DNA of 64,000 nucleotides from an uncultured bacterium (GCA_963826535.1 CAWGXL010000010.1:234814-298813), one strand, 5' to 3'. Shown: positions 7,890-52,783, counted from the stretch's first letter. Translations and numbers: made by a program. The notes: a model not told the origin generated them from the sequence alone.

Positions 7890-7957
7890 CCCGCCGGCAA
7901 AGCGCTCATCGAGCCGTACTCGAATAGAATTGAAAAGGCGGAAGTAAGCTTAGGCGG
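7890..7957. repeat. Family-2 palindromic intergenic repeat, copy A (CCCGCCGGCAAAGCGCTCATCGAGCCGTACTC...GAAGTAAGCTTAGGCGGG)
   Basis: Imperfect long hairpin. Two near-identical copies lie at 38883-38952 and 52694-52783. Confidence 0.8.
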
Positions 7958-7966
7958 GGAAAGAAT

Positions 7967-8308
7967 ATGAAACACAAATATAATAAATCAACAATAATAA
8001 AACAGTCATCAACTATGAAAAAACCATTATTACTACTTATTTTTTTCGTTAGTATTGTACTTGGTCTCTCAATTATTCAGGTTGCGGTTTCGAACAAATT
8101 ATCTACCACAGGTATCGAACTGGAAAACCTGCAATCCCAAATTACAAAATATAAGAAAGAAAATACGACTCTTGAAGAAAAAGTACTGGAAGCGTCAGCT
8201 CTTATAAATGTTTCAAAGAAGGCTAAAGCATTAGGACTCGTCGAAACAAAATCACAAATTTACTTATCAAATCCTTTGCCTCTTGCACTAGGTAATGCAA
8301 ATGAATAA
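7967..8308 (+). CDS. ftsL: Cell division protein FtsL-like (single TM plus coiled coil)
   Basis: Small bitopic protein between rsmH and ftsI with a TM helix (LLLLIFFVSIVLGL) and then a coiled coil. The call rests on position and architecture. Confidence 0.55.
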   Translation: MKHKYNKSTIIKQSSTMKKPLLLLIFFVSIVLGLSIIQVAVSNKLSTTGIELENLQSQITKYKKENTTLEEKVLEASALINVSKKAKALGLVETKSQIYLSNPLPLALGNANE

Positions 8309-8310
8309 AC

Positions 8311-8381
8311 GTCATTCCTACTAAAGCAGGAATCTTATCATTTAATATTATTAGTTTCCCTTTTGCACTGGAATGACAAGG
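8311..8381. repeat. Family-1 MITE-like element, short copy (GTCATTCC...GGAATGACAAGG terminal inverted repeats)
   Basis: GTCATTCC at 8311-8318 and GGAATGAC at 8370-8377. The ends are shared with the copies at 15422, 38491 and 46355. Confidence 0.7.
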
Positions 8382-8407
8382 TGAAATTAAGATATAATTA
8401 GTCAGCA

Positions 8408-10195
8408 ATGAAATGGCGCTATCGATTTAGCTTATTATTTTTTATAATATTTTTTCTAATTATTGATAGCAGATTATATTATTGGCAGGTTGTCCGCGCA
8501 GATGAGTTGTCAGCTATGGGTCAGTCTCAATATGGAGCTGCAGTAAAATTAATTCCCCGCCGGGGTCCAATAAAAGTCTCGGACGGATTTGCAATTGCAA
8601 CAAATAAAATTACATATCTTGTTTTCGCAAATCCAAAGGTAGTAAAAGATAAAGAAAGCGTGGCAAATAAACTTTCTCCACTCTTGCAGATAAAAAGCAG
8701 TACTCTAAGTGCACGATTATCGTTAAATAGTTACTGGTCTCCTCTAAAACCTCAAATAGACGAGAATCTAAAAAACAAAATAGAAGCGCTTAAGCTCGAG
8801 GGAATAGACTTTGAAGAACAACCTAAACGTTTTTATCCCGAAGCGTCAATGGCTGCCAAAATACTAGGCTTTGTTGGAAAAGACAAAAATGGAGATCCTC
8901 AAGGTTACTTCGGTTTGGAAGGCTATTACGATAGACAATTACGCGGCAAAGCCGGCATGGGTATGCGCTTACATGATGCATGGGGCAATCCTATTGTTTC
9001 GAATATGAATAGCATTGCCGACAGGATCGACGGCCGTACGCTCATATTACACACAGACCGTGTTATTCAATATATTTTGGAGCAGGAACTAAAAAACGGA
9101 ATAGCAAAATATGGCGCTGAAAGCGGTATGGCAGGTATTATAGATCCTAAAACCGGTGGGATATTGGCGATGAGCGCATTTCCCGATTATGATCTCAGAA
9201 ATTATCAGGACTTTTCAGACAATCTTTATAAAAATCCGTTTATTTCCGATACTTACGAACCCGGCTCGACTTTCAAGCCATTTATTATGTCCGCAGCGAT
9301 TGACGCCGGAGTTATTAACTCCGATACCATCTGCACGATATGTAGCGGTCCCGTAGAAATTGGCGGCTATACCATCAAGACCTGGAATGACAAATACCAC
9401 GCGAACTCAACCATGACCGATGTTATTCAACACTCTGACAATACCGGAATGGTTTTTGTTGGCAAAAAGCTAGGTTTGGATCGTATGCTGAGTTATATAA
9501 AAAAGTTCGGATTCGACGATTACACAGGAATTGACCTACAGGGAGAGGCATCTCCGGACCTTAGGCCAAGGGACAATTGGTATCCAATTGACCTGGCAAC
9601 AGCTACCTTCGGACAGGGTATTACGGTAACCCCAATTGAATTACTTTCTGCATTTGCTGCGATAGCCAACGAGGGGAAAAGAATGGAGCCCCACATGGTC
9701 GATGCAATAGAAACACCTACAGGTGAAACGATCAAAATTCAACCCAAAGAATTAAGCCGGCCAATTTCTTCAAAAACGGCCAAAATTATGACTGAAATGA
9801 TGGTAAATGCTGTTGAGAACGGTGAAGCACAATGGGTGAGACTCAAAGGTTATAGAATTGCAGGTAAGACCGGTACAGCTCAAATCGCGCTAGCCGGTAA
9901 TTATGACCCAAGTAAAACAATCACTTCTTTTATCGGTTTTGCCCCTGCAGACGAACCAAAATTTGTCATTCTTGTAGTTTTAAATAAACCGTCCACATCT
10001 ATTTATGGATCTGAAACAGCAGCTCCGATATTTTTCAACGTTGCCAAAAAACTACTGACTTATTACAATATACCTCCAACCGGATCAGTAATCTCTACCC
10101 CTGAGCTATTAAAAGTTGTAGCAGACCCCCCACAAGACACACCTACACTTGATCTATCAATTTCACCTGAAGCTACGGAATCAGCCTCCCCTTAG
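8408..10195 (+). CDS. ftsI: Peptidoglycan D,D-transpeptidase FtsI (class B penicillin-binding protein)
   Basis: N-terminal TM helix, STFKP (SxxK), SDN (SxN) and KTGT motifs. 595 aa. Confidence 0.85.
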   Translation: MKWRYRFSLLFFIIFFLIIDSRLYYWQVVRADELSAMGQSQYGAAVKLIPRRGPIKVSDGFAIATNKITYLVFANPKVVKDKESVANKLSPLLQIKSSTLSARLSLNSYWSPLKPQIDENLKNKIEALKLEGIDFEEQPKRFYPEASMAAKILGFVGKDKNGDPQGYFGLEGYYDRQLRGKAGMGMRLHDAWGNPIVSNMNSIADRIDGRTLILHTDRVIQYILEQELKNGIAKYGAESGMAGIIDPKTGGILAMSAFPDYDLRNYQDFSDNLYKNPFISDTYEPGSTFKPFIMSAAIDAGVINSDTICTICSGPVEIGGYTIKTWNDKYHANSTMTDVIQHSDNTGMVFVGKKLGLDRMLSYIKKFGFDDYTGIDLQGEASPDLRPRDNWYPIDLATATFGQGITVTPIELLSAFAAIANEGKRMEPHMVDAIETPTGETIKIQPKELSRPISSKTAKIMTEMMVNAVENGEAQWVRLKGYRIAGKTGTAQIALAGNYDPSKTITSFIGFAPADEPKFVILVVLNKPSTSIYGSETAAPIFFNVAKKLLTYYNIPPTGSVISTPELLKVVADPPQDTPTLDLSISPEATESASP

Positions 10196-10218
10196 ATCCA
10201 TTTAAAAACTAATTACAA

Positions 10219-10734
10219 TCAATTACCTGTTTTCGTTAAAAAATCCTCTAACCCCTTTATAACCATATGAAAACCTATCGGCTGTTTCAATACTTGATTC
10301 CTCGGAAAAAATCGAAAATCCGCAACATCATCATCAGCTTTCAAAATTCCGCTAACAATTTTTGCCGTTACTATAATACCCAGCGTTGGATTAACAATCT
10401 CCTGAAATAAATAGGTGTCTTCATAAACTCCGATAATATTTATCATTTTTACCTCAACGCTTAGCTCCTCCATAATTTCCCTCTTAACTGAATGTTCCAG
10501 GCTTTCCCCTGCTTGTATAAATCCACCAGGAACATCCCAATAACCTTTTTTCGGCTCAATCTTTCGTCTTACCAGCAAAATTTCCTTTTTTTTATTTTCA
10601 ATAATAACACCATTACATGGTATTGGATTTAAATATAATTTAAATCCGCAATGAACACATTGCAACAATTCCTCTTTTATCTCAAGCTTATTTCCACACC
10701 TGTGACAAAATTTATTAGCTTCTCTAGGATCCAT
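10219..10734 (-). CDS. NUDIX hydrolase with N-terminal zinc-ribbon
   Basis: CxxC...CxxC at the N-terminus. NUDIX box GGFIQAGESLEHSVKREIMEELSV. Confidence 0.75.
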   Translation of the reverse strand: MDPREANKFCHRCGNKLEIKEELLQCVHCGFKLYLNPIPCNGVIIENKKKEILLVRRKIEPKKGYWDVPGGFIQAGESLEHSVKREIMEELSVEVKMINIIGVYEDTYLFQEIVNPTLGIIVTAKIVSGILKADDDVADFRFFPRNQVLKQPIGFHMVIKGLEDFLTKTGN

Positions 10735-10735
10735 A

Positions 10736-11065
10736 CTATTTTATTTTTGCGCCGGCTTTAGATTTTGATTTCGCTTTGATAGGTATAGGCTTTACCCCAT
10801 CTGCACACAATAGCATACCCTGTGATTCTTCACCAATAAATTTTCTTGGCTCCAAATTAATAACAAATATAAATTGCTTTCCTTTAAAATCTTCAGGTTT
10901 ATAAATAGGGTACAGACCGGATAAAATATTCCGCTTACCTTCCTCCCCAAAATCCACAGTAAGCCTTAAAAGTTTATCTGCTCCCTCTTTCCGAACGCAA
11001 TCCACTACATCACCTACCCGCAAATCCAATTTAGAAAATTCCTCATAAGTAATAAATGGCTTCAT
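10736..11065 (-). CDS. tRNA-binding domain protein (CsaA/Trbp111/MetG C-terminal-like)
   Basis: MKPFITYEEFSKLDLRVGDVV...DKLLRLTVDFGEEG.RNILSGL matches the OB-fold tRNA-binding domain. Confidence 0.7.
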   Translation of the reverse strand: MKPFITYEEFSKLDLRVGDVVDCVRKEGADKLLRLTVDFGEEGKRNILSGLYPIYKPEDFKGKQFIFVINLEPRKFIGEESQGMLLCADGVKPIPIKAKSKSKAGAKIK

Positions 11066-11079
11066 AAATTAAGATTGTA

Positions 11080-11412
11080 TCAAATAAGCTCCCAAAAATC
11101 ACCAATTTGAATTTTACTTTTCTCTACACTACCAACTGGCAATTCCACAATAAGTGAATAAATTGGATTCCAAACGAAAATCCTGTTTGGTTTCAATTTT
11201 TTCCTTATTCTCACGACCTGTTTCTTCTTATCCAAAACAATTACATCAATAGGAAACTGCATAAAAAAAGTGTGTACCCCAAATCGTGTTTTAAAAATCA
11301 TAACCACAGGCGTTTTAATAAAAATCATTCCAAATATTTTCTGACCTAACGTTGATGCATAAATGGCATTTTTAGAAATAATTGTATGATTGGCATTATT
11401 CGAGATCTTCAT
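11080..11412 (-). CDS. DUF192 domain protein
   Basis: ...GMIF...FWM..IDVIVLDKKKQVVRI...IYSLIVELPVGS...IGD matches the DUF192 (COG1430) pattern. The start is uncertain: ORF track 11487, internal Met 11412. Confidence 0.5.
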   Translation of the reverse strand: MKISNNANHTIISKNAIYASTLGQKIFGMIFIKTPVVMIFKTRFGVHTFFMQFPIDVIVLDKKKQVVRIRKKLKPNRIFVWNPIYSLIVELPVGSVEKSKIQIGDFWELI

Positions 11413-11456
11413 ATAATATTTATTATAGTAAAAATTTGCTATACTATGGTTATCCA

Positions 11457-12035
11457 ATGACTGGAAGAACACACGACCTTGCAGCATTTACTGCCTTAAG
11501 TATAACTGTTATTTTATTACCAATCGATAAAATTACACTTTCGACAGCTATTGTTGCAGTTGTAGCCAATATGATTGGTGGTATTGCCCCTGATATAGAT
11601 CAGCCAACCGCTCCCTTCTGGCGCAATCTACCAATTACCGGATATTTAGGAAGAACATTGACCAGACTTCTTGGTGGACATAGATTTCTCTCCCACTCTG
11701 TAATAGGCATCTTTATTTTCGGGTTTGGATTCCGCTATCTATTGAATATACTGCATCCAAGTTTCCCTCAGCTAAACATGGAAATTATCTGGTGGGCATT
11801 CATGATCGGTTTTGTATCTCATCTCGTTATGGACACATTCACCCGCGAAGGAGTACCATGGCTGCTTCCTGTCCCAATAAAATTTGGCATACCACCTCAT
11901 AAATTTTTCCGCATCACTACCGGCGGATTCATGGAAAGATTTATCCTTTTCCCGGCACTTATTATTTTTAATGGATATTTCTATTTTTCGAATTACTCCA
12001 AAATCCTAGACATATTAAAACACCATTTGAAGTGA
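11457..12035 (+). CDS. Membrane-bound metal-dependent hydrolase, YdjM/DUF457 family
   Basis: MTGRTHDLAAFTALS... and multi-TM with conserved His/Asp (HLVMD). The ORF track starts at TTG 11382; ATG 11457 is preferred. Confidence 0.6.
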   Translation: MTGRTHDLAAFTALSITVILLPIDKITLSTAIVAVVANMIGGIAPDIDQPTAPFWRNLPITGYLGRTLTRLLGGHRFLSHSVIGIFIFGFGFRYLLNILHPSFPQLNMEIIWWAFMIGFVSHLVMDTFTREGVPWLLPVPIKFGIPPHKFFRITTGGFMERFILFPALIIFNGYFYFSNYSKILDILKHHLK

Positions 12036-12052
12036 GCATTTTATAAAATCCT

Positions 12053-13246
12053 ATGTGGCAGGACATAAAAAATATTTACCATCTACTCCAAGCTATATAT
12101 GCCAACATAATAAATGGTTACCCTTCAAGAGGATTAACTATAATTGGCGTTACAGGAACAGATGGAAAAACTACAACCTCATTTATGATTTATCATATCC
12201 TAAGAGCTGCAGGCTTTAAAACCGCCCTCATCTCATCAGTCGCGGCTATCATTGACGGGAAAGAATATGATACCGGTTTTCATGTCACTAACCCAGATTC
12301 GTTACATTTACAACCATACATTAAAATGGCCCGAAATAAAGGTATTAAATATTTAATTATCGAAACAACCTCAATGGGCTTGCATCAGAACCGTGTTTTT
12401 GGTATACCTTTTAGTATCGCCGTTCTCACCAACATAACAAACGAACATCTCGACTACCATAAAACCTATCAGAATTATGTGAAAGCCAAAGCGCGCCTTT
12501 TCCAAGTCGCGAAAACTTCGATCATTAATGCCGATGATAAATCTTATTCTTATATAGTTCCATACATCCGGAATAAAAAAGTTATTACGTATGGAATGAA
12601 TAAAAACGCCGAAATAAATCCGATCGTCTTCCCATTTAAAACCAAACTACTTGGTAGTTTCAATACATACAATGCGCTTGCGGCTATTGCAGTCGCAAAG
12701 GATTTGAATATAAACGATGCGACTATAACCAAAGCTTTACTTTCATTTACAGCTCCAACTGGCCGCGTAGAAATTGTCTACAATAAGGACTTTAAGGTAA
12801 TTATTGATTTCGCCCACACCCCCGGATCTTTTAAAGCAGTACTTCCTGATATAAGCAAAATGAAAACAGGCCGTCTTATCCATGTTTTTGGCTCAGCCGG
12901 CCAGCGTGATAAATATAAACGGCCCGAAATGGGCAATATCTCATCAATTTACGCTGAGATCATTATCCTTACAGCCGAAGATCCTAGATCTGAATCTGTT
13001 GAAGAAATTATTTCTGAAATAGAGAAGGGTATAAATTCCAAATTCGACAAAAAAAACTTATTTATAATCCCCGATAGAAAAGAAGCTATTAAAAAAGCCG
13101 TTGATTTAGCTAAATACGGAGATATTATATTAACTACAGGTAAAGCACATGAAAGCTCCATGAATTATGGCAAAGGAGAAGAACCATGGAGTGAACATGA
13201 AGCTGTAAATGAAGCAATTAAAAAAAGAATGGTAAAAATTAAATAG
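12053..13246 (+). CDS. murE: Mur ligase family protein, MurE-like, lacking the usual N-terminal domain
   Basis: P-loop GVTGTDGKTTT, middle-domain NITNEHLDYH and C-terminal DFAHTPGSF (cf. MurE DYAHTPDAL). 397 aa, against about 490 for typical MurE. Confidence 0.6.
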   Translation: MWQDIKNIYHLLQAIYANIINGYPSRGLTIIGVTGTDGKTTTSFMIYHILRAAGFKTALISSVAAIIDGKEYDTGFHVTNPDSLHLQPYIKMARNKGIKYLIIETTSMGLHQNRVFGIPFSIAVLTNITNEHLDYHKTYQNYVKAKARLFQVAKTSIINADDKSYSYIVPYIRNKKVITYGMNKNAEINPIVFPFKTKLLGSFNTYNALAAIAVAKDLNINDATITKALLSFTAPTGRVEIVYNKDFKVIIDFAHTPGSFKAVLPDISKMKTGRLIHVFGSAGQRDKYKRPEMGNISSIYAEIIILTAEDPRSESVEEIISEIEKGINSKFDKKNLFIIPDRKEAIKKAVDLAKYGDIILTTGKAHESSMNYGKGEEPWSEHEAVNEAIKKRMVKIK

Positions 13247-13247
13247 T

Positions 13248-13976
13248 ATGATACATTTTGACACCTCTAATTTTAAAACGTTTTCACAATATCCAAATTT
13301 AGTTAGCGCTTATTCGACCCGGTCTTCAGGATCTATGAAAGATCATGGCATAATCAATTTTCAAGTTATTAATTCTTTTCTTACGAAATTTAAAATCTCA
13401 TCAGACAGACTTGTTTTATCAGAACAAGTACATGGTGGTGATATTGAAATCTTAGATAATGTTCCAACAGAAAAAATCATCCAAAAAGTTGATGGTTTGA
13501 TTACTTCAAAAAGAAATATTTTTCTGGGAATAATAACAGCCGACTGTTTTCCAATACTATTTTATGATAGAAATAAAAAGATAATTGGCGCAGCTCATGC
13601 CGGCTATAAAGGCTTAAGCAAACTGATAATTAAACATATGATAGATGAATTAAAAAATTTAGGAAGTAATCTCAAAGATTTAATTGTCTATATTGGTCCA
13701 GGAATCGGGCTTTGTTGCTATTTAGTATCACAAAAGAGAATTGAGATGTTTAATAAAGTATTTCCGTCATATCAAAATTGGTATCAAAAGAAAAAGGATT
13801 TATTTTTTTTAGATTTGAAAAAAATTGCGTATCTAAATCTTAAAGAACAAGGGATACTTATTAAGAACATCAATATCTCAGAAATTTGTACAAGCGATCA
13901 TATTGACACTTTTTTTTCTTACCGCAAAGAAGGAGAATCTGCCGGAAGATTTATCAGTATTATTGGAATGACATGA
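13248..13976 (+). CDS. pgeF: Peptidoglycan editing factor PgeF (YfiH/DUF152, purine nucleoside phosphorylase/laccase-like)
   Basis: TADCFPILFYD...GAAHAGYKGL...C motifs of the YfiH family. Located between Mur ligases. Confidence 0.7.
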   Translation: MIHFDTSNFKTFSQYPNLVSAYSTRSSGSMKDHGIINFQVINSFLTKFKISSDRLVLSEQVHGGDIEILDNVPTEKIIQKVDGLITSKRNIFLGIITADCFPILFYDRNKKIIGAAHAGYKGLSKLIIKHMIDELKNLGSNLKDLIVYIGPGIGLCCYLVSQKRIEMFNKVFPSYQNWYQKKKDLFFLDLKKIAYLNLKEQGILIKNINISEICTSDHIDTFFSYRKEGESAGRFISIIGMT

Positions 13977-15394
13977 AAAAGAAAAAGAAATACATTCACT
14001 TTACAGGTATCAAAGGTGTCGGCATGACCCCACTTGCCATTATAGCCAAAGAAGCCGGATTTACTGTTACCGGATCAGATATAGATGAAGAATTCATCAC
14101 AGATGTTGCCTTAAAAAATGCAGGAATTAGTCCGTTAATTGGATTTTCAAAAGATCATATCAATAAACAAGATTTAGTCATAACCACAGGTGCGCACAAT
14201 GGATTTGATAATATCGAAGTTAAGAGAGCCAAAGAATTAGGTATAGAAGTCCTTACTGCCGGGGAAGCTGTAGGGATTTTTATGGACGGCAAAATTTTCA
14301 ACAAAAAATACCGTGGTATCTCTATTGCAGGAACTCACGGGAAGACAACCACAACAGGCATGTTAGCAACAATTCTTAAAGAAAACCGTTTTGACCCATC
14401 ATATGTTATAGGAACCGGGAACGTTGTCTCCCTAGGCGCACCCGGACGATTCGGTCGCGGCAAATACTTCGTCGCCGAAGCCGACGAATATGCCACAGAA
14501 CCCAATTATGATAAAACACCCAGATTTCTCTGGCAGCACCCGCAAATTGCCATTTTCACCAACATCGAATTTGACCACCCGGATGTATACGCCACTCTTG
14601 AAGCTATCCGCTTTGCATTTTTAAAATTTGCCAACCAACTTCCAACGAACGGAGTTTTAATTGCCTGTGGTGATGATCGCCAAATTCAAAAATTAATTAA
14701 AGAATACAACAAGCCAAATATAACCTACGGATTTTCACCTGACAATAATTATGTCATAACCAAAGTTAGCATTTCAGGCGATCATATGTTTTTTTGGGTA
14801 AGCGCGTACGGTAAAAATATAGGTGAATTTATGCTAAAAGTTATAGGCGAGCATAATGCGCTAAATGCGCTTGCTGCCTTTATAGCTGCAACTGAAGCAG
14901 GCGTGTCTCTGGAGAAAGCCAGATCGGCGCTTCAGGCGTTTACAGGATCAAAAAGAAGATTAGAATATGTTGGCGAGCTCTTATCTGGAGCAAAAATCTA
15001 TGATGATTACGCCCATCACCCCACTGAAATTGAGAAAACTCTCCTCGCGCTGCGAAAGCAATATCCGAAGAAAAAAATAACCTGTTTTTTTCAACCACAT
15101 ACGTTTTTAAGAACAAAAAAACTATTCGATGACTTTTTAAGAGCATTTGAATTCGTTGATACTGTAGTAGTAACCAATATCTATCCATCTCTTCGTGAAC
15201 AATTTGACCCGACAGTTTCTTCAAAAATCCTAGCTGTGTCAATGGAAAAATTCCATAAAGAAGTTATTTACCTCCCTAAATTAACCGATATAACAGATTT
15301 TATCAATCAAAAAAAATTCCGCTCCGATACTATAATAGTTACTATGGGCGCCGGCGACATTTATAAAATAAATAATAATCTCAAGTTTAAATAA
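13973..15394 (+). CDS. murC: UDP-N-acetylmuramate--L-alanine ligase MurC
   Basis: N-terminus IHFTGIKGVGMTPLAIIAKEAGFTVTGSD, P-loop GTHGKTTTT, Mur ligase domains. 4-bp overlap with pgeF. Confidence 0.85.
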   Translation: MKKKKKYIHFTGIKGVGMTPLAIIAKEAGFTVTGSDIDEEFITDVALKNAGISPLIGFSKDHINKQDLVITTGAHNGFDNIEVKRAKELGIEVLTAGEAVGIFMDGKIFNKKYRGISIAGTHGKTTTTGMLATILKENRFDPSYVIGTGNVVSLGAPGRFGRGKYFVAEADEYATEPNYDKTPRFLWQHPQIAIFTNIEFDHPDVYATLEAIRFAFLKFANQLPTNGVLIACGDDRQIQKLIKEYNKPNITYGFSPDNNYVITKVSISGDHMFFWVSAYGKNIGEFMLKVIGEHNALNALAAFIAATEAGVSLEKARSALQAFTGSKRRLEYVGELLSGAKIYDDYAHHPTEIEKTLLALRKQYPKKKITCFFQPHTFLRTKKLFDDFLRAFEFVDTVVVTNIYPSLREQFDPTVSSKILAVSMEKFHKEVIYLPKLTDITDFINQKKFRSDTIIVTMGAGDIYKINNNLKFK

Positions 15395-15421
15395 GTAAAC
15401 TGACACCTAACTGACGGAGAA

Positions 15422-15562
15422 TTGTCATTCCGAGCGACCAAAGGGAGTCGAGGCGACACCAAGAAGTGGATAGTACCCTTGTGGTGAATCTCATACCACA
15501 TATCTACTTGGTGGCTTGAGATCCCTCCACTACGCTATCGCTTCGGTCGGGATGACAGGGTG
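15422..15562. repeat. Family-1 MITE-like element, long copy (TTGTCATTCCGAGCGA...GAGATCCCTCCACTACGCTATCGCTTCGGTCGGGATGACAGGG)
   Basis: About 140 bp. The 3' 40 nt are nearly identical to the copy at 46417-46457. A TATAAT box follows directly at 15563-15568, upstream of the murB-like gene. Confidence 0.8.
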
Positions 15563-15583
15563 TATAATATGAATCATTAATCT

Positions 15584-16237: not shown

Positions 16238-16249
16238 TATAATATCTTT

Positions 16250-38461: not shown

Positions 38462-38490
38462 AATAAATTAATTTTTCCTTTTACCTTATC

Positions 38491-38591
38491 TTGTCATCCC
38501 TTCCGCCAGCTGGCGGATCATAATCTCAAGCGTTTGGGATCTTGAATTAAATTCAGAGCCTGTCCTGAAGTTCTTTCAGGGATGACAGTAC
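38491..38591. repeat. Family-1 MITE-like element (TTGTCATCCC...CAGGGATGACAGTA) containing the perfect palindrome CCGCCAGCTGGCGG
   Basis: Terminal inverted repeats match the other family-1 copies. Sits between atpF and atpE. Confidence 0.7.
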
Positions 38592-38601
38592 TTAAAACAC
38601 T

Positions 38602-38811: not shown

Positions 38812-38882
38812 AAATAACTCACCTCCTTTTAGAAGCTCTTAACGATCCCGATTCAATCGGGAGAGTTCTAGTGCTTCTTAAA

Positions 38883-38952
38883 CCCGCCGCTAAAGCGCTC
38901 TTCAAGCCGTGTACAAATAGTACTGAAAAGGTTTGAAGTAAGCTTAGGCGGG
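38883..38952. repeat. Family-2 palindromic repeat, copy B
   Basis: CCCGCCGCTAAAGCGCTCTTCAAGCCGTGTACAAATAGTACTGAAAAGGTTTGAAGTAAGCTTAGGCGGG. Sits between atpB and atpE. Confidence 0.8.
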
Positions 38953-44218: not shown

Positions 44219-44229
44219 AATTAAGTAAC

Positions 44230-44854: not shown

Positions 44855-44913
44855 TTTTTTAACTTTTCCGGCTTTAAGAATTGTTACACTTTGTTTACGA
44901 ATTAATCTATTAA

Positions 44914-46341
44914 CTATTTCAAACTACTTTCAATGGTTTTTCGAACAATCGTCGCGTCGACTTTTTTCCCGATCTTTCTCATTGTCTGTCCCACCAAAAA
45001 CATAATAGAAGCTTCTTTTCCTTTCTTATAATCTTCAACAGCCTTTCCGTGCTCCTTTATCACTTGACCTATTATTTTTTGCAACTCATCCTCATCAATC
45101 ACTACTCTAGTTTTAGCTCCGGCTATCTGTTTTACCAAATCACCAGGCTTTACCTTATTGATATTAACCTTTTTATTAATAATCCAATTAGCAATAGCCT
45201 TTGGCTCAACTCTTTCTTTATTATTTCTTACCGCATTTTCAAAATAGTCAGCCATGTTTTTTTCTCTGCACAAAATTTCGGCATCATAAAACGTGAGTCC
45301 ATATTCTGTCTCAAATCTTGCCACTTTTTTATCCGGCAATTCTGGCACCAAAGCAATCAGACTGCTAAGTTGCTCTCCCGTCCATCTAATTGGAGGAATA
45401 TCGGGGTCTGGAAAATATCTGTAATCCTGCGCTTCCTCTTTCAATCGCTGAGAGAAAGTTTTTTGCCTATCCTCATCCCAACCTCGGGTTTCCTGAACCG
45501 GAATTTTTCCTTCCACTAGTATTTTCTCCTGCCTTTTCAATTCATAAGCAATCGCTTTCTCAACAAATTTAAAAGAGTTGATATTTTTAACTTCCACCTT
45601 ATATTTTGGCAATTCGTCATTCTGGAGCGAAGCGATAGAATCTACTGCAGGGGATCCTATCGTGGTCGTTGCCACTCCAGGATGACTGCGAAGCGAAATA
45701 TTCGGTTCAAGACGCATCTCACCTTTTTCCATGTCAGCATTCGACACATCTAAATAGCGTACAATCTGTTGAAGTTTTTGCAAATATTCTTTTACCTCGA
45801 TTGCGCTTTGAAAATCAGGCTCAGTTACGATCTCGACCAATGGCACACCACTCCTATTGAAATCAATAAATGATACCTTGGGAGGAGGATTACTTTCGAG
45901 TATACCAGTGAGTTCTTCGTCTTTAGTATACCAAGCAGAACCTCCATGGTGAGTTAGCTTAGCAGTGTCTTCCTCCATATGAACCCTGCGGATACGTATC
46001 AATTTTTTATCGGACAAAACAATATGTCCTTTCTCAGCGAACGGCTGATCGTACTGACTTATCTGATATCCTTTTGCCAGATCCGGATAAAAATAATTTT
46101 TGCGATCAAACTTTGAAATCAAAGGAATCTTACAATTTAAAGCCATCCCGATCATTACGCACCACTCAATTGCTTTTTTATTAGGCACCGGCAATGCGCC
46201 AGGTAGTCCAAGGCAAACAGGGCACGTGTGTGTGTTAGGTTCTTTTCCAAAATATTCCGTACTGCACCCGCAGAACATCTTTGACTTAGTCTTGAGTTCC
46301 ACATGTACTTCTAGTCCGATTACAGGTGTGTATTTATTCAT
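44914..46341 (-). CDS. gatB: Asp/Glu-tRNA amidotransferase subunit B
   Basis: ...GLEVHVELKTKSKMFCGC... is the GatB N-terminus, with a YqeY-like C-terminal domain. Confidence 0.9.
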   Translation of the reverse strand: MNKYTPVIGLEVHVELKTKSKMFCGCSTEYFGKEPNTHTCPVCLGLPGALPVPNKKAIEWCVMIGMALNCKIPLISKFDRKNYFYPDLAKGYQISQYDQPFAEKGHIVLSDKKLIRIRRVHMEEDTAKLTHHGGSAWYTKDEELTGILESNPPPKVSFIDFNRSGVPLVEIVTEPDFQSAIEVKEYLQKLQQIVRYLDVSNADMEKGEMRLEPNISLRSHPGVATTTIGSPAVDSIASLQNDELPKYKVEVKNINSFKFVEKAIAYELKRQEKILVEGKIPVQETRGWDEDRQKTFSQRLKEEAQDYRYFPDPDIPPIRWTGEQLSSLIALVPELPDKKVARFETEYGLTFYDAEILCREKNMADYFENAVRNNKERVEPKAIANWIINKKVNINKVKPGDLVKQIAGAKTRVVIDEDELQKIIGQVIKEHGKAVEDYKKGKEASIMFLVGQTMRKIGKKVDATIVRKTIESSLK

Positions 46342-46354
46342 AGTTATTTTCTAT

Positions 46355-46457
46355 TTGTCATTCCGAGCGACTGGAAGTAGTCGAGGAATCTCCTACCAAT
46401 GAGCTAATAAGTGGTATGAGATCCCTCCACTTCGCTATCGCTTCGGTCGGGATGACA
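46355..46457. repeat. Family-1 MITE-like element (TTGTCATTCCGAGCGACTGG...GAGATCCCTCCACTTCGCTATCGCTTCGGTCGGGATGACA)
   Basis: Shares both termini and a 40-nt 3' block with the 15422-15562 copy. Sits between gatB and gatA. Confidence 0.8.
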
Positions 46458-46461
46458 ACTT

Positions 46462-47868
46462 TTATATTTTTGGTTTCTTCAAATACAATGGATTTTCCGA
46501 TTCATACTGATAAGCTAAATTAAGTACAGTTTCCTCTCCATACTGCCGCCCAATAATCTGCATACCAATGGGCATTTTTTCCTTTGAAAACCCAACAGGC
46601 ATATTAATGCCTGTTAGACCGGCGATGGACGAAGGCTCAACAAGGACATCCATAATCTCCCCAAACATTGGATTATCTTTCGTCGCCCCAATCTTAAGTG
46701 CCGTAACTGGAGTTGTGGGACTAATAATAGCATCTACTTTCTCATATGCTTTCATAAAATCCTGAATAATCATTGTCCGCACCTTTTGCGCCTTTTTATA
46801 ATATGCATCATAATATCCACTAGAAAGTGCGTATGTTCCAAGCATTATGCGCCGCTTTGCTTCTTCGCCAAAGAAAGAACGGTCTTTACCATATCGGATA
46901 CCGTCATACCGTGCTAAATTTGATGAAACCTCAGACCTTTGCAAAATCGTATAAACATCAATTGCATATTTCGGGTCAAACAACTTAACCTTTTTTATTA
47001 TATGACCATGCTTTTGCAGGACTTTAATTGCGTCTTCAACAGAAGCTACGATTTCAGGATCAACACCCGTGAAATAATCATCTGAAATACCGATTGTCAT
47101 TTTTCTTGATCCCTTTAAATTCCTGGAATAGTTTTTTACTACTTCCTGAGATGTAGTTGCGTCATTTGGATCATTTCCTGCTATTACTTTAAGTATAAGT
47201 GCTGCATCCTCGACAGTCTTAGTAATTGGTCCCGGACTATCCAGAGACGAACCCATGGCTATCACTCCATATCTGCTAACTCTTCCATAAGTTGGTTTAA
47301 ACCCAACAATTCCACACCATGCGCTAGGCTGTCTAATTGAGCCTGCAGTTTCTGATCCAACAGCTGCTACGCACTCATCAGCACACACACTTGCCGCAGC
47401 CCCGCCCGATGAGCCACCTGGTAATTTATTAATATCCCATGGATTTCTGGTTGTTCCATAGTCAGATGATTCAGTTGAAGAACCATGTGCCCAAGCATCC
47501 ATATTTGTTTTACCTAGCAAAACAATTCCTGCATTTACCAATCGCTCTACAACGGTCGCGTTGTAGGGAGGTATAAACTTATCTAGCACATTGCTCGAAG
47601 CTGTTGTACGAATTCCGGTAGTTAAAAAATTGTCCTTAATAGAAAAGGGGATTCCAAGAAGTGGAAAGTCGGCCCCGGTTGCTAATAAATCATCTGCCTT
47701 TTGCGCGTCTTCCAGAGCACGTTCTTCTGTTACAGTCACAAACGCGTGAAGTTTGGGTTCAATTTTATTAATTCTTTTTAAATATTCTTTAGTAAGTTCT
47801 GAAGAAGAAAATTTCTTTTCTTTAAATTTCTTTTTTACGTCTTTTATAGTTAGTGAATGGAGATCCAT
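46462..47868 (-). CDS. gatA: Glu-tRNA(Gln)/Asp-tRNA(Asn) amidotransferase subunit A
   Basis: Amidase-signature family (GGSSGG...). 468 aa. Confidence 0.9.
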   Translation of the reverse strand: MDLHSLTIKDVKKKFKEKKFSSSELTKEYLKRINKIEPKLHAFVTVTEERALEDAQKADDLLATGADFPLLGIPFSIKDNFLTTGIRTTASSNVLDKFIPPYNATVVERLVNAGIVLLGKTNMDAWAHGSSTESSDYGTTRNPWDINKLPGGSSGGAAASVCADECVAAVGSETAGSIRQPSAWCGIVGFKPTYGRVSRYGVIAMGSSLDSPGPITKTVEDAALILKVIAGNDPNDATTSQEVVKNYSRNLKGSRKMTIGISDDYFTGVDPEIVASVEDAIKVLQKHGHIIKKVKLFDPKYAIDVYTILQRSEVSSNLARYDGIRYGKDRSFFGEEAKRRIMLGTYALSSGYYDAYYKKAQKVRTMIIQDFMKAYEKVDAIISPTTPVTALKIGATKDNPMFGEIMDVLVEPSSIAGLTGINMPVGFSKEKMPIGMQIIGRQYGEETVLNLAYQYESENPLYLKKPKI

Positions 47869-48158
47869 TAATCAATATCCTCCTCTAATATTGCCGGCAC
47901 GACAAAAAATCCTTTATAAGTTTTCTTCGCGTTCATCAAAGCACTTTCCTGCGAAAGCGAGGGTATTACTTTATCATCCCGCCAGACATTAACCAGATTA
48001 TTTACCTCATTTGTTTCAGCTATGCTTGCTGTATCAATTTCCTTTAGTCGTTCAACATGTTTAAGAGTTTCTTCCAGTTGTTCTGCAAGTGACTTTTTTT
48101 CTTTCGCTGAAATAGGAAGATTTGCCAATTTAGCCACATGGCTAATATCAATTTTCAT
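47868..48158 (-). CDS. gatC: Amidotransferase subunit C
   Basis: MKIDISHVAKLANLPISAKEKKSLAEQLEETL. 96 aa. Confidence 0.85.
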   Translation of the reverse strand: MKIDISHVAKLANLPISAKEKKSLAEQLEETLKHVERLKEIDTASIAETNEVNNLVNVWRDDKVIPSLSQESALMNAKKTYKGFFVVPAILEEDID

Positions 48159-48263
48159 GAACCTATTATATGCACTAGTCTATTTTTTTACAACTATTGA
48201 AATATTAATCAAAAGCGAATCTTAAGTTTTTCGATTAAGAGTTGTGAATTGTACTAAGCCAGG

Positions 48264-49064
48264 TCAAATTAAAGGTGGATGATTTTCTTGTGTTGCTAGT
48301 ATTTTAGCGTTCTTTATTTGTCTGGCAAGGTGAAAAGTATTTATGTATGAATTATTAGAAGATCTGGTTTCGTGAATCAAATCTCGCATGTCATCCCAAA
48401 AATGACCCCCAACACTTAAGTCAGATGCTCTATCTGGTCGAAGTATTTTCAAATACGCACCTAGGTCTAATGCCATTATTGCAGCTTCTCTTTTCGCAAG
48501 CCATTTAGGAGATTCTATTTCTGCACCTAATCTATTAAATACATCTTGACCAAAATTCCATTCATCGCCACTTATTCCCATTTCATGAGCTCTTTCAGGA
48601 GCAATGATTGAAAGATTAGCTCCCAAAGCAGCCATATTATGATCATAAAGCTTATGTACATCTTGCAAAACCCCGCCTCCAATTTTTCTTGAGGTCCTTA
48701 TAGTCCGTAACGCAACATATACAAGTCTTGGATATGAAAATTCATCAACAGGAATTTCGGGAATCTGACTAAAAGTAGTCTTAGCTGCCGCTGCTAATTC
48801 CAGTGCTCCCACTAAATCTGGAACAGTCGTTACATATTTTTCTTGTGTATCAATTTCTTTATTAATTTCTTGAAAAAAATTAAGATTCAAATCCAAATAT
48901 CTAAGTATTGGATGACCAGGAAGGATTGTTTTCAGATCTGCGCCTAAAAGAATATGGTCTGGTTTTCCTTTTGTTATATCCAACTTCTTTCCTAGGCGAT
49001 CTAAATCACCTGTAGTTAATTCCCTGACTGGATCATAAAGCGGTCCAGCTTTTATTTCATGCAT
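48264..49064 (-). CDS. Hypothetical protein (266 aa), no recognisable domain
   Basis: Long ORF with ordinary composition, between gatCAB and gatD-murT. Confidence 0.45.
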   Translation of the reverse strand: MHEIKAGPLYDPVRELTTGDLDRLGKKLDITKGKPDHILLGADLKTILPGHPILRYLDLNLNFFQEINKEIDTQEKYVTTVPDLVGALELAAAAKTTFSQIPEIPVDEFSYPRLVYVALRTIRTSRKIGGGVLQDVHKLYDHNMAALGANLSIIAPERAHEMGISGDEWNFGQDVFNRLGAEIESPKWLAKREAAIMALDLGAYLKILRPDRASDLSVGGHFWDDMRDLIHETRSSNNSYINTFHLARQIKNAKILATQENHPPLI

Positions 49065-49117
49065 ATAGTAATTATACTACAAATAGTGGAAACATTAGGT
49101 TAAATTTTATAACACCT

Positions 49118-49885
49118 CTATGATTGATCGGCAAGGTTTAATCTATTCAATACTGCATTTTTTGCCTTATTCTCCAATTCATCATCAAGCGCTATCAATT
49201 CAACTTTATGCTTATACTTAACCTCTAATGCCTTCTTAATAACATAATCTGCAATATGAGGATTTTTCGGCAAAAGGGGACCATGCAGATAACTTCCTAT
49301 TGCATTTTTATATAAAACACCTTCAGTACGGTCTTCTCCATTATTCCCAAATCCTTTTATAACTTTCGCAAACGGCTTTGCGGATTTTCCCAAAAAGCTT
49401 CTTCCCCCATGGTTTTCAAACCCCACAATTATTTCATCCTCAAGCTCAGGAATTAATATCTTCGCAACAACATTACCAATACATCGTGGAATATTTTCGC
49501 CTGGATGGACAGAATTCATATCAAATATCCCAAGACCTTTTATCCGTTTTCCAACAGCAGGTTCATAATAATTTCCCATAAGTTGTGGGGACCCGCAAAC
49601 GAAAAGGGCTGGAATATTATTCTCGATCAAATCTATTATTATCTTCCCCTTCTCGCCTTCCAGGTCGTTTATAACAATTTCCTGTTCCCGATCCTGAGCT
49701 CCACCACCAAAAAAAATATCTACCTTTCTTATTTCACCCAATTTCGTTTCAGTAGTTATTGGAAGAACGAGTACTTCAATTTCTCTCCAGTCACAACGTT
49801 TTTGAAACACTATAATATTCCCACGATCCCCGTAAGTACTCATAAGCTCGGGATATAACCAACCAATGGTAAGCTGATATTTCAT
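49118..49885 (-). CDS. gatD: Lipid II isoglutaminyl synthase, glutaminase subunit GatD (CobQ/CobB-type GATase)
   Basis: MKYQLTIGWLYPELMSTYGDRGNIIVFQKR... matches the GatD N-terminus. 4-bp overlap with murT. Confidence 0.7.
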   Translation of the reverse strand: MKYQLTIGWLYPELMSTYGDRGNIIVFQKRCDWREIEVLVLPITTETKLGEIRKVDIFFGGGAQDREQEIVINDLEGEKGKIIIDLIENNIPALFVCGSPQLMGNYYEPAVGKRIKGLGIFDMNSVHPGENIPRCIGNVVAKILIPELEDEIIVGFENHGGRSFLGKSAKPFAKVIKGFGNNGEDRTEGVLYKNAIGSYLHGPLLPKNPHIADYVIKKALEVKYKHKVELIALDDELENKAKNAVLNRLNLADQS

Positions 49886-51162
49886 AGTATCCTCCTTCCA
49901 GTTAGAATTTTACGCACCTCAAGCATCGCCGAATAAGTAGGAAGAATAAACAGCTTTTCATCCTCTCCAACCAGATCTATTCCGGTACTTACGGCATCTT
50001 CTATCTTTTCAATTGTTTGAAAATTTTTGTACCCTTCATATTTAATACGTAAAGCCATATCATATACTCTGTCACCTGTAATAATTATATGTTTAAAATC
50101 TTCTATTCCTGGCAGATCAACATCCCAAATCCAGGATATGTCGCGGCCATCTGGTATTCTATCGTTCAAAGCTAAAATTAGAGTTTTCGCCTCAAGCTCC
50201 TTAATCGTGGTATATGATTGATTAAAGCTTGTTGGATTTTTGGAAAGAAAGAGCTGGACCTTCTTTCTCTTGTAAATTATTAATTCCTGCCGTCCAAAAG
50301 CAGGAGTAAAACCTTTTAAAGCCTGATTAATATCATCCTCAAGGAGACCGATTGTTTTTAAAAGCAGTACAGTTGATAGAATATTATATCTATTATACAA
50401 ACCGGGTAATGGGTAATCTGCTATATCGAGTGTCAATCTAGGACGTGTAAATTTACATTTATTGCAGCTATAATCACCAAGATGGGAAAAGAAAATCTTT
50501 TTATAATTTAACTTCGTCCCACAATTTGGACAGTAAATTGAATCTGCTGCATGCTGTTGAATAATGTTACTTTGATTTAAATCATTGAGACCAAAAAACA
50601 GCTTCTGGGCTTTCATATTTTTACCTAAAAACGCAATTTGGGGGTCGTCCGCGTTCAAAATAAGTGTTGTAGAGGAAGGCATTTTTTCCAGAGCTAACTT
50701 CCATTTTTTTGCAATAGTTTGCACTTCTCCATACCTATCAAGTTGATCGCGGAAAAGATTAAGCAAAACAATATAATTTGGCGTTAATTCTTTTAGTGAA
50801 TGAGGCAGGACGTTCTCATCAACTTCAAATATCGCATAATCGCAATTCAAATTTCCCGTCATATTGCAGTTAAGGATTAAAGCGGATGCAATGCCATTTA
50901 GTAAATTTGCCCCCGACTGGTTCTGCAAAATCTTTTTCCTGTTTGTTTCAAGTACTGTTCTAATTAGCCTCGCGGTTGTAGTCTTCCCATTTGTTCCGGC
51001 AATAAGTATTGTTAGTAGTGAAGATTTAGAAATCATTTCCGAAATAAAATTTTTATTTATTCCCAATGCAATATGTCCCGGCCAAGTTGAGCCATTACCG
51101 AAATTTGTGATTCTGAAAAATTTAGATATAATTTTTCCGAAAATAATTAATAAGAGATTCAT
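49882..51162 (-). CDS. murT: Lipid II isoglutaminyl synthase MurT (Mur ligase family with Cys4 ribbon and DUF1727)
   Basis: P-loop IAGTNGKTTT and zinc ribbon CPNCGTKL...CNKC in the middle domain. Paired with gatD. Confidence 0.7.
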   Translation of the reverse strand: MNLLLIIFGKIISKFFRITNFGNGSTWPGHIALGINKNFISEMISKSSLLTILIAGTNGKTTTARLIRTVLETNRKKILQNQSGANLLNGIASALILNCNMTGNLNCDYAIFEVDENVLPHSLKELTPNYIVLLNLFRDQLDRYGEVQTIAKKWKLALEKMPSSTTLILNADDPQIAFLGKNMKAQKLFFGLNDLNQSNIIQQHAADSIYCPNCGTKLNYKKIFFSHLGDYSCNKCKFTRPRLTLDIADYPLPGLYNRYNILSTVLLLKTIGLLEDDINQALKGFTPAFGRQELIIYKRKKVQLFLSKNPTSFNQSYTTIKELEAKTLILALNDRIPDGRDISWIWDVDLPGIEDFKHIIITGDRVYDMALRIKYEGYKNFQTIEKIEDAVSTGIDLVGEDEKLFILPTYSAMLEVRKILTGRRIL

Positions 51163-51179
51163 TCTGGAGGCAAAAACTT

Positions 51180-52076
51180 TTACATCGACCTTAAAGCCTT
51201 TATCCTTTCCTCAATAGGCGGGTGTGTACTGAAAAAACCAGTAAACCATCCCTGAAAACCTTTGTTCTTGAAAGGATTTACAATAAAGAGATGCGCAGTA
51301 GCGCTCGTTGCAGTTAGAACCGGCCTTGGATCTGATGCGATTTTCTCCAATGCATTGGCCAATGCTTCTGGATATCTTGTCAAGAGAGCGCCTGAGGCAT
51401 CAGCCAAATATTCACGCTTGCGGGAAATTGCTAGTTGAATAAGAGTAGCAACCACTGGTGCCAAAAATGCAAATATTAAACCCATAATCAGAAATAAACC
51501 GGTAGCTCTTTTATCCCTGCTCTCATTTCTAATTCCTCCCCAAAGTAACCCCCGCATAAATATGTCTGCGATTAAAGCAATAAAGCCAACAAGTAAAGCT
51601 GCTATAGCCATAAGCCTGATGTCATAATTTTTAACATGCGAAAGTTCATGAGCCAGAACACCTTCTAGTTCGCTTTTATTTAGTCGTTCAAGTAATCCGG
51701 CCGATACCGCGACGCTTGCATGTTTAGGGTCACGGCCGGTCGCGAATGCATTAGGTGACGGATCATTAATAATATACAGTTTTGGCATTGGTGTGCCGGA
51801 TGCAATGGTCAAATTTTCGACTATTCTATATAATTCAGGATTATCTTTTTTTTCAATAGGCTTAGCGCCTGATGTAGATAGTACAACCTGATCTGCATAA
51901 TAGTAGCTGCCAATACTGGATGTAATTGAGATAATTAAAATAATAATTGTAAACGCAAGTCCATAACCTGTAACTTCACCTATAACATAACCAACTGCGA
52001 CGGCAAAAACGACAAATAAAAACATTATTATCCAGCTTTTCCAGATATTTTGTGATATTTGAGAATAAATCTTCAT
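51180..52076 (-). CDS. htpX: Protease HtpX (M48 family)
   Basis: HELSHVKNYD (HExxH), 4 TM, ...THPPIEERI at the C-terminus. Confidence 0.85.
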   Translation of the reverse strand: MKIYSQISQNIWKSWIIMFLFVVFAVAVGYVIGEVTGYGLAFTIIILIISITSSIGSYYYADQVVLSTSGAKPIEKKDNPELYRIVENLTIASGTPMPKLYIINDPSPNAFATGRDPKHASVAVSAGLLERLNKSELEGVLAHELSHVKNYDIRLMAIAALLVGFIALIADIFMRGLLWGGIRNESRDKRATGLFLIMGLIFAFLAPVVATLIQLAISRKREYLADASGALLTRYPEALANALEKIASDPRPVLTATSATAHLFIVNPFKNKGFQGWFTGFFSTHPPIEERIKALRSM

Positions 52077-52083
52077 TTGCCTT

Positions 52084-52635
52084 TTAGAATTTAACCTTCA
52101 CTGGCTTTTTATCTTCTTCACCAGTCTCGAAATATTCTGCAGGTTTAAAATTAAGCAGATTAGCAAATAACACATTTGGAAAAATCTGAATCTTTGTATT
52201 ATAGTCCAGTACGTTACTGTTATAAAATTGGCGCGAATATGCTATTTTATTCTCAGTATCCGAAAGTTCTTCCTGTAAAGATAGAAAGTTTTGACTGGCT
52301 TTCAAATCAGGATAATTCTCTGCAACTGCAAAAAGTGACTTTAAAGTATCTGTTAACATATTATTCGCAACTGCTTTTTCTTGCGCTGATGATGCGGACA
52401 TAAGATTTGCCCTCGCCTTTGTTACATTCTCAAGCAATGTTTTCTCATGTTTTGTGTATCCTTTTACAGCCTCAACAAGATTAGGAATAAGATCCGTTCT
52501 TCGCTTCAGTTGTACATCGATCTGAGACAAAGCTTCAGCAATTCGAGCTTTTGCAGTTACTAGACTGTTATATACAACCCACAAATAAATAAGTATACCT
52601 GCAAATATTATTACCGGAATCCATGTCATATCCAT
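52084..52635 (-). CDS. lemA: LemA family protein
   Basis: N-terminal TM plus ...[31 protein letters not shown]... . Strong RBS AAGGGGGTGA upstream. Confidence 0.8.
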
Positions 52636-52654
52636 AAATTTATCACCCCCTTTA

Positions 52655-52690
52655 GAGACACTTAGCGAATGTAATGAGTTTAGTGTCTCT
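52655..52690. other. Hairpin: 9-bp perfect inverted repeat AGAGACACT / AGTGTCTCT with an 18-nt loop
   Basis: Seen directly. Between the polX stop and the lemA start, with no U-tract. Confidence 0.5.
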
Positions 52691-52693
52691 TAA

Positions 52694-52783
52694 GTCCGCC
52701 GCTCAAGCGCTCTTCAAGCCGTGTACTCCTGTCCGCCTTTGGCGGGAATAGTACTGAAAGGGCTTGAAGTAAGCTTAGGCGGA
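52694..52783. repeat. Family-2 palindromic repeat, copy C (with an extra internal GTCCGCCTTTGGCGGGA hairpin)
   Basis: GTCCGCCGCTCAAGCGCTCTTCAAGCCGTGTACTC...GTACTGAAAGGGCTTGAAGTAAGCTTAGGCGGAC. Confidence 0.8.

Follow-up and report, generated by a model that had tools for sequence, protein, structure and literature searches.

Three copies of a palindromic repeat in the window

The DNA analysed here, a stretch of 64,000 nucleotides (nt) from an uncultured bacterium (GCA_963826535.1 CAWGXL010000010.1:234814-298813; hereafter the window), carries in three intergenic regions a long palindromic repeat, designated family 2, which is an undescribed and structurally conserved hairpin repeat of the Microgenomates (candidate phyla radiation). 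As identified with Pfam, copy A lies among plus-strand genes in the order MraZ, RsmH, copy A, FtsL-like protein and PBP; copy B lies in minus-strand DNA in the order AtpB, copy B, AtpE (69 amino acid residues) and AtpF; and copy C lies between the minus-strand genes for a PolX-like protein (with polymerase beta thumb and PHP domains) and LemA. These gene neighbours, and the coordinates to within 1 nt, confirm the three sites named in a preliminary description of this DNA, namely past rsmH, in the atpB-atpE spacer and past polX. Exact matching with both conserved halves of the element gave exactly three core copies in the window, all on the plus strand (by chance, 0.04-0.05). The invariant 17-mer at the 3' side, GAAGTAAGCTTAGGCGG, and the 18-mer at the 5' side, AAGCGCTCTTCAAGCCGT, each have three exact matches, all on the plus strand, where about 0.05 would be expected by chance. 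A covariance model run with all filters off detected the same copies with E-values from 6e-19 to 6e-15 and no fourth copy in the window. Copy A is in the sense orientation relative to its flanking genes, and at copy B, where the genes are on the minus strand and the atpB stop codon is 3 nt off the right end, the mRNA has the reverse complement.

The copies are GC-rich (50-57% GC) on an AT-rich background (30-40% in the surrounding window), in line with the preliminary description. The long imperfect hairpin that it also proposed was borne out for copy B (-32.1 kcal/mol, z = -5.7 relative to shuffled sequence) and copy C (-46.0 kcal/mol, z = -5.4). The fold of copy A is weak (-21.8 kcal/mol, z = -1.0) because this copy is decayed, with a mismatch and a 1-nt deletion in helix P3 and a mismatch in helix P4 (helices are defined below). 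The extra hairpin noted for copy C corresponds to 19 nt inserted into its apical loop, and the closing pair of helix P1 in this copy is changed from C-G to U-A, a compensatory change. A peptide-coding reading of the core was rejected, as copy lengths vary by 1-2 nt and insertions of 19-32 nt exist, and a by-eye check for -35 and -10 hexamers in both orientations gave no acceptable promoter pair inside the element.

Structure and covariation of the core

The core is about 70 nt long (68-71 nt) and forms a four-helix interrupted hairpin, whose arms pair over 23 bp and whose plus-strand consensus is CCCGCC-GCUMA-AAGC-GCU-CUUC(AA|GA)GCC-GU-GUAC-GAAUA-GUAC-UGAAAA-GGC(UU|GA)GAAG-UAA-GCUU-A-GGCGGG (helices P1 to P4 in Table 1). 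In a structure-blind MAFFT alignment, double changes were found in 8 of the 23 pairs, a number that none of 500 shuffles reached. In the model-fitted alignment, which is biased towards the model structure, compensatory double changes occur in 15 of the 23 pairs and 92.6% of the cells are paired, falling to 22-44% in register-shift controls. Three divergent copies (L029:3063, L049:6276 and L068:32; loci are given as L numbers) have a wholly different P3 sequence, with the pairing and the central tandem G.A kept, and P4 covaries freely (GUAC/GUAC, GAAC/GUUC, CUAC/GUAG, AUUC/GAAU and UUAC/GUAA). Insertions of 4-32 nt are tolerated at the apex only (window copy C, L009, L049, L060, L075 and L082). 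They are often small GC hairpins of the type CCGCC-N3-4-GGCGG or CCCGAUUNAAUCGGG, and mini-hairpins related to that of copy C are nested at the same position in L049, L075, L082 and L060. Given the covariation and this tolerance of apical insertions, what is conserved is therefore an intrastrand hairpin, as RNA or as single-stranded DNA, and not a duplex site for a dimer. Since the stems are self-complementary, both orientations yield nearly the same RNA stem-loop, with loops that differ.

Distribution of the family

The census was seeded with an exact 17-mer scan of one representative genome per species and of JGI/ENA metagenomes; a covariance model was then built from 27 copies, which recovered copies without the 17-mer and one more copy in a relative. 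About half of the genome and metagenome matches to the 17-mer (in Campylobacter and others) were unrelated coding sequence and were discarded, and the same scan of viral contigs gave one chance match only. In total about 37 distinct copies, all intergenic, are present in metagenome-assembled genomes (MAGs) of Patescibacteria/Microgenomates and in groundwater or sediment metagenomes, so the family is repeated well beyond the window. The MAG carriers comprise four Levyibacteriota, one Gottesmanbacteria and five labelled 'Patescibacteria group', and one further carrier, a small contig binned as Gammaproteobacteria, is taken as mis-binned. Single contigs (L029, L049, L068 and L075) hold 2-4 copies, and one MAG has copies on three contigs. 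Hainich H14/H51 samples are the source of L068 and L073. Conservation of the copies between species is 85-99%, at a protein identity of only about 67-70%.

The core matches no Rfam family: a search of the window and 24 loci against Rfam 15 gave zero matches at the gathering score, and around copy B, with E-values up to 10 allowed, there were chance-level matches only (E above 2). In addition, a literature search on RNA motifs, palindromic repeats and MITEs (miniature inverted-repeat transposable elements) of Microgenomates or the candidate phyla radiation found nothing relevant. The feature is real and well supported, and represents a new family among the small palindromic intergenic repeats.

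Gain and loss at orthologous sites

Presence of the element in relatives is patchy, with both filled and empty orthologous sites at atpB-atpE and at rsmH-ftsL. The atpB-atpE spacer is empty in L092 and L093 (21 and 15 nt long, respectively; 81-82% AtpB identity), and in L096 and L097 (72% AtpB identity) the two genes overlap and there is no element. Alignment of filled and empty sites showed that the window carries a block of about 125 nt, made of the core and a second hairpin (module 2, described below), between the atpB stop codon and a pre-existing Shine-Dalgarno sequence, GGAGGTGAGTTA, which is the orthologous one of the empty-site relatives. In L095, which has the same synteny and 75% AtpB identity, the short-form core alone stands at atpB-atpE in the same orientation, as a copy independent of that in the window. 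The rsmH-ftsL site, filled in the window, is an empty spacer of 1-48 nt in five relatives (L098-L102). The loci of the relatives, about 177 kb that were not picked for the element, contain one copy, compared with three in the 64-kb window. Moreover, copies that are 99% identical occur at unrelated sites, as in L013 (rpsU) and L029 (ybaB) or in L095 (atp) and L010 (pilX-like), in genomes whose flanking orthologous proteins are 67-70% identical, and copies at orthologous sites are no more alike than those at unrelated sites. A repeat that is mobile or often replaced behaves in this way; a vertically inherited leader does not.

A different repeat was seen in L094 (78% AtpB identity), where the atpB-atpE spacer has at 10730-10795 two tandem units, CGTAGGGGCRATT-loop-RTTGCCC, which resemble the GTAG-type repetitive extragenic palindromic (REP) sequences. 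This doublet is truly REP-like and its sequence differs from family 2, so the atpB-atpE spacer has acquired different hairpin repeats independently. The atpE-atpF spacer of the window (38462-38601) has a palindrome of its own, CTGTCATCCC...GGGATGACAAG enclosing a TCCGCCAGCTGGCGGA mini-hairpin, which resembles another repeat termed 'family 1', and with copy B on the other side atpE is thus flanked by repeat hairpins on both sides. Family 1 itself is a direct repeat, TTGTCATTCCGAGCGA...GAGTCGAGGAATCTC...GGGATGACA, with two copies about 81-84% identical at 15422-15566 and 46355-46466 of the window, the second between gatB and gatA.

Position relative to genes, ribosome-binding sites and promoters

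With gene calls from a simple open reading frame script and Pfam for gene identities, 31 of 34 copies were found to have a start codon near one end, 7-19 nt away, or 59-74 nt where module 2 intervenes, and the gap to the neighbouring gene at the opposite end varies between 0 and about 200 nt. About 24 copies, B and C among them, have their flanking genes encoded on the opposite strand, so that the mRNA has the reverse complement (antisense type). The short form of this type ends in P1 followed by CAAGGRGG with the start codon 7-19 nt off, and the long form continues from the core into module 2 and then UAAAGGAGG, with the start codon 59-74 nt off. The sense type comprises 12 copies including A, with an ATG 8-18 nt past GGCGGG. 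Downstream genes encode ribosomal proteins S21 (three genomes) and L10, YbaB (two), HU, NrdR, AtpE, LemA and FtsL, and further a PilX-like protein, a secreted protein of 183 amino acid residues (three), DAHP synthase (two) and several small membrane proteins. In the predicted fold of the whole atpE leader, the Shine-Dalgarno sequence is unpaired between two stable hairpins.

Module 2 follows the core not only at sites B and C but also in L012, L013, L029, L030, L043, L054 and L087, and in long-form copies it always separates the core from the Shine-Dalgarno sequence. Covariation is seen in its 9-bp stem (AGAARYUCU/AGARYUUCU), the loop parts AAAACUC and CGUUA are conserved, and the apex holds variable nested mini-hairpins, at site B CCCGATTCAATCGGG (38847-38861). 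Tiny GC hairpins of the forms (U)CCGCC-N3-4-GGCGG(A) and CCCGAUUNAAUCGGG are nested in the loops of larger palindromes and also stand free, in the window at 38503-38516, 38847-38861 and 52733-52745 and in L015, L029, L049, L075 and L082, and they may be a separate mini-repeat family.

Promoter calls, which are consensus matches only, gave a sigma-70-like site of at least 9/12 matching positions ending at most 40 nt upstream in 7 of 23 antisense-type copies, where shuffles had a mean of 1.8 and none of 500 reached 7. Antisense copies with an upstream promoter, including copy C in the LemA transcript, would therefore sit near the 5' end of the transcript, and the remaining copies are operon-internal. 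The tandem G.A in P3 is found in 9 of 12 sense copies and in only 6 of 24 antisense copies (Fisher p = 0.01). It reads as unfavourable C.U/U.C on the complement, and antisense copies are mostly Watson-Crick at this position. This skew suggests selection on the transcribed strand, and a subfamily effect could also produce it.

Four family-2 copies surround the 16S rRNA gene of metagenome contig L049 (4610-6072, minus strand), three in the leader and one in the trailer (Table 1). A long-range pairing across 16S between an antisense leader copy and the sense trailer copy, as an RNase III stem, was considered and rejected, for the copies are too different and each folds locally.

Table 1. Coordinates and composition of the family-2 elements and associated features
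Feature	Position	Strand or orientation	Description
Copy A, core hairpin	7890..7958	+	76.8 bits; between rsmH stop (7872) and ftsL-like start (7967)
Copy B, core hairpin	38883..38952	+	94.5 bits; atpB-atpE spacer
Copy C, core hairpin	52695..52783	+	83.7 bits; between polX stop (52791) and LemA, genes on - strand
Copy C, apical-loop insertion (19 nt)	52727..52745	+	mini-hairpin CCGCC-TTT-GGCGG at 52733-52745
Module 2, site B	38831..38878	-	between core and atpE Shine-Dalgarno (38820-38829)
Module 2, site C	52650..52694	-	between core and LemA Shine-Dalgarno/start (ATG 52635-52633, -)
Sigma-70-like promoter (predicted)	52818..52846	-	ATGACA-17-TATAAT, 11/12 match; in polX 3' end, 34 nt upstream of copy C (mRNA sense)
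L049 leader copy	6392-6462	sense	
L049 leader copy	6276-6344	antisense	
L049 leader copy	6096-6163	antisense	
L049 trailer copy	4252-4324	sense	followed by terminator-like hairpin and tRNA
Helix P1			CCCGCC/GGCGGG
Helix P2			AAGC/GCUU
Helix P3			9 bp, fully Watson-Crick or with central tandem G.A
Helix P4			4 bp, capped by GAANA pentaloop

Several other features were observed near family-2 copies or in the window. The DAHP synthase genes of two different MAGs, in L009 (about 5700-5860) and L015, have a similar long leader (TTTACTTTA-CTCC...GGGG...), whose last part, immediately upstream of the family-2 copy in the element-oriented frame, is a terminator-like hairpin and which may be an unannotated attenuator or riboswitch-like leader. 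L051, where a family-2 copy lies upstream of nrdR, also has a match to the LOOT RNA at 4348-4463 on the minus strand (RF03000, 71.6 bits). Across the window (1-64000), most genes in about the first 32 kb are on the plus strand and most of those further on are on the minus strand, and the GC skew stays close to 0 over the first half and is about -0.15 over the second, a pattern compatible with a single replichore for the entire window, on which the minus strand is G-rich.

Discussion

We consider it somewhat better than an even chance that family 2 is a non-autonomous palindromic repeat of the ERIC, Correia and MITE kind, specific to Microgenomates, that is co-transcribed with its neighbours and has a role as an RNA stem-loop. 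Three traits are unusual for such a repeat, namely the steady juxtaposition to a ribosome-binding site (RBS), the very high conservation across species and the composite form with two hairpins. The family, its covarying structure, its patchy presence, its place beside the RBS and its two orientations are shown, and from there we infer that the element is transcribed, has an effect at the RNA level and spreads as a repeat. It would be gained and lost at single intergenic sites, and would survive where it is transcribed yet harmless or useful, that is, between a promoter or upstream stop codon and the next Shine-Dalgarno sequence, in either orientation. The co-transcribed stem-loop, with module 2 at sites B and C, could then guard or define mRNA ends in a 5'-proximal or intercistronic position, and candidates for the mechanism are a site for double-strand-specific processing of the RNase III type or a block on 5'-end-dependent decay. 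As the RBS would stay unpaired, the downstream gene (atpE or the genes for LemA, S21, HU, YbaB, L10 and others) might be uncoupled from the upstream gene, as for the abundant c subunit, which would be uncoupled from atpB. We favour a role at the RNA level because the element is neither a terminator nor a duplex operator (see below), its stems are self-complementary, the Shine-Dalgarno sequence is predicted to be unpaired and the tandem G.A is skewed towards the transcribed strand. The earlier proposal of an mRNA-stability element is plausible and is the preferred one, on the basis of position and structure only, and the stem-loop may act in stability, processing or RBS insulation.

Known repeats give this reading its models. 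ERIC/IRU elements of enterobacteria (127 bp) are, like family 2, imperfect palindromes in transcribed intergenic DNA that occur in either orientation, have shorter and longer forms by internal deletion or insertion, and are unusually conserved at non-orthologous sites. They are co-transcribed and can change the stability of the flanking mRNA, and for both ERIC and Correia elements this involves RNase E or RNase III (PMC2229807). However, family 2 has no sequence similarity to ERIC, is about 70 instead of 127 nt long and belongs to another phylum with streamlined genomes; it also has an RBS-adjacent end almost always and the composite module-2 form, and the TA duplications reported for ERIC are not clear in it. 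The Correia/NEMIS elements of Neisseria are likewise small, non-autonomous and gene-adjacent, and the long hairpins in their co-transcribed RNA have been put forward as RNase III targets through which neighbouring mRNAs are modulated (PMC2229807). They have terminal inverted repeats of 24-26 bp, TA duplications, IHF sites, promoters and hundreds of copies, none of which is shown for family 2, where the whole element is a single hairpin. Like family 2, REP/BIME sequences are extragenic, GC-rich palindromes located in operon spacers; segments of mRNA can be stabilised by them, and only one strand gives the recognised hairpin. REP units are 20-40 nt long with a 5' GTAG and are usually clustered, while family 2 is about 70 nt long, has four helices and no GTAG by P1, and is mostly solitary. 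The 'REP/MITE-like' label of the preliminary description therefore holds in the wide sense of a dispersed, multi-copy imperfect palindrome with filled and empty sites, both orientations and nested insertions, and fails in the strict sense, since an element of about 70 nt without GTAG is not a classical REP. In cyanobacteria, the ATPC RNA motif is a structured element lying, as copy B does, between the ATP synthase genes for subunits a and c, but family 2 is not atp-specific, is missing from this spacer in most relatives and has no Rfam match.

Several points weigh against the favoured reading. There is no clear target-site duplication: the flanks are TAA...TAA at window copy B, L034 and L082, TGA/TAA at L095, and inconsistent at short antisense-type copies. 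Nor was an autonomous parent found, in that about 0.8 Mb of fetched loci held no lone or split arms flanking a gene or transposase. In 26 of 30 copies, among them most of those whose complement is in the mRNA, the better fold is that of the plus strand and not of its complement, and module 2 has the same bias, which one would not expect from selection on the mRNA strand alone; counts of G.U versus A.C do not separate the strands, there being too few non-Watson-Crick pairs. All three window copies are on one strand, and antisense-type copies are flanked by CCYTT. The near-identity across species is hard to explain by a neutral passenger. In addition, most loci were found by the exact 17-mer, so that the conservation of this segment is partly built in, and the orientation classes are weakened by their derivation from a simple open reading frame script.

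The strand bias, the one-strand window copies, the CCYTT flanks and a hint from GC skew keep alive a mechanism at the level of DNA, in which the plus-strand hairpin would be recognised as single-stranded DNA by an HUH-type enzyme, either REP/RAYT-like or IS200/IS605-derived ('PATE'-like), and which we regard as rather improbable overall. Adjacency to the Shine-Dalgarno sequence would then be a target preference (e.g. insertion 3' of CCTT, the complement of AAGG), and orientation would be set by the replication fork. Irrespective of gene direction it is the same strand that folds better, also in module 2, the window copies share one strand despite differing directions of their flanking genes, and antisense-type copies nearly always have CC(Y)TT(G/T) on their left, but this flank is missing from the sense-type copies. 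The lack of classical target-site duplications would fit such a mechanism, as would the distinct GTAG-type doublet in the atpB-atpE spacer of L094; family 2 itself has no GTAG motif and is twice as long as a REP, and no Y1/HUH transposase gene was seen in a non-exhaustive search. Regression of GC skew on coding-strand bias in element-oriented frames gave a significant intercept of -0.05 (bootstrap -0.072 to -0.030), which agrees with a bias of orientation relative to replication, a value confounded by gene orientation and expression and of a sign that puts the better-folding strand on the C-rich strand. Furthermore, the tie of the tandem G.A to the transcribed strand points to selection at the RNA level.

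Selection at the RNA level could also act on the plus orientation only, if the element were a nut-like boxA/boxB module loading Nus factors for processive antitermination, or a site for another conserved RNA-binding protein, deployed upstream of selected genes as well as in rRNA leaders and spacers, with the antisense copies as by-products; we hold this to be unlikely as well. The 5' arm reads CGCUCUUC(R)AG, and boxA is CGCUCUUA in lambda and UGCUCUUUAACAA in the E. coli rrn operons. Starting 7 nt past this arm, P4 has a G-A-A-N-A loop in which only position 4 is free (U, G, A or C), and the loop of lambda boxB is GNRNA; the apparent likeness to lambda nut and rrn boxA-boxB thus consists of CGCUCUUC and, after it, a short hairpin whose pentaloop is of the GNRNA type. 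On the plus strand there are also the conserved tandem G.A, purine-rich bulges and the greater stability noted above, and the motif GCUCUU is present in all 12 sense copies and lost in three antisense copies. E. coli rrn operons have nut-like sites in the 16S leader and past 16S, and L049 has sense copies at both places. However, these two sense copies carry an unrelated CCGCC-AACU-GGCGG in place of the boxB-like hairpin, about two-thirds of all copies, B and C among them, run antisense to the only transcripts that are plausible, and the boxA-like segment is base-paired within P3. Moreover, terminator-like hairpins lie upstream of the sense copies and not downstream, and short downstream genes (S21, HU and ftsL) need no antitermination.

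In a broader form, the element could be a lineage-wide RNA signal recognised by a conserved protein (a nut-like Nus loader, an RNase III-type processing or maturation signal, or another factor) and not a passenger, a view to which we assign a low probability. Its placement in rRNA leaders and before the RBS of the genes for S21, L10, HU, YbaB and the ATP synthase c subunit would, with the same reservation, serve to set their expression. If so, purifying selection on the contacts with the protein would account for the near-identity across species, and it would be adaptive that the same genes have acquired the element repeatedly.

The terminator role raised in the preliminary description is not upheld, and a factor-independent, possibly bidirectional, terminator or attenuator is very unlikely. 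The stem P1 is GC-rich, stable and intergenic, copy C follows polX directly and several copies begin 0-14 nt past a stop codon, but the element is not an intrinsic terminator because it has no U-tract: none was found on either side in the flanks of about 37 copies, and a terminator scan was empty at A, B and C. Copy B lies within the atp operon, right before atpE, which needs high expression, B and C are inside or at the head of units with downstream genes needing expression, and true terminator-like hairpins with T-runs are separate features beside some copies. A double-stranded DNA operator for a dimeric regulator of abundant small proteins would suit a palindrome between promoter and start codon that recurs before the genes for S21 (three times), YbaB (twice), HU, L10, NrdR and AtpE, but can hardly be entertained when apical insertions of 4-32 bp alter the half-site spacing, compensatory changes keep the intrastrand pairing and not a fixed half-site sequence, 70 bp far exceeds known operators and close relatives lack the element at the same genes. 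An integron attC site was rejected, as the ends CCCGCC...GGCGGG lack the AAC/GTT cores (RYYYAAC...GTTRRRY) and the neighbours are core housekeeping genes.

Bacteria of the candidate phyla radiation have small genomes and are thought to be poor in mobile elements and regulators, and to our knowledge almost nothing is known of their post-transcriptional control. The covariance model lets annotators mask or label family-2 sites in Microgenomates MAGs. If family 2 is a passenger, MITE-like repeats would thrive even in streamlined genomes and mark 5' untranslated regions that tolerate insertion. If it is functional, it would be a portable module for expression, with a hairpin that keeps the RBS free, akin to synthetic 'insulator' hairpins.

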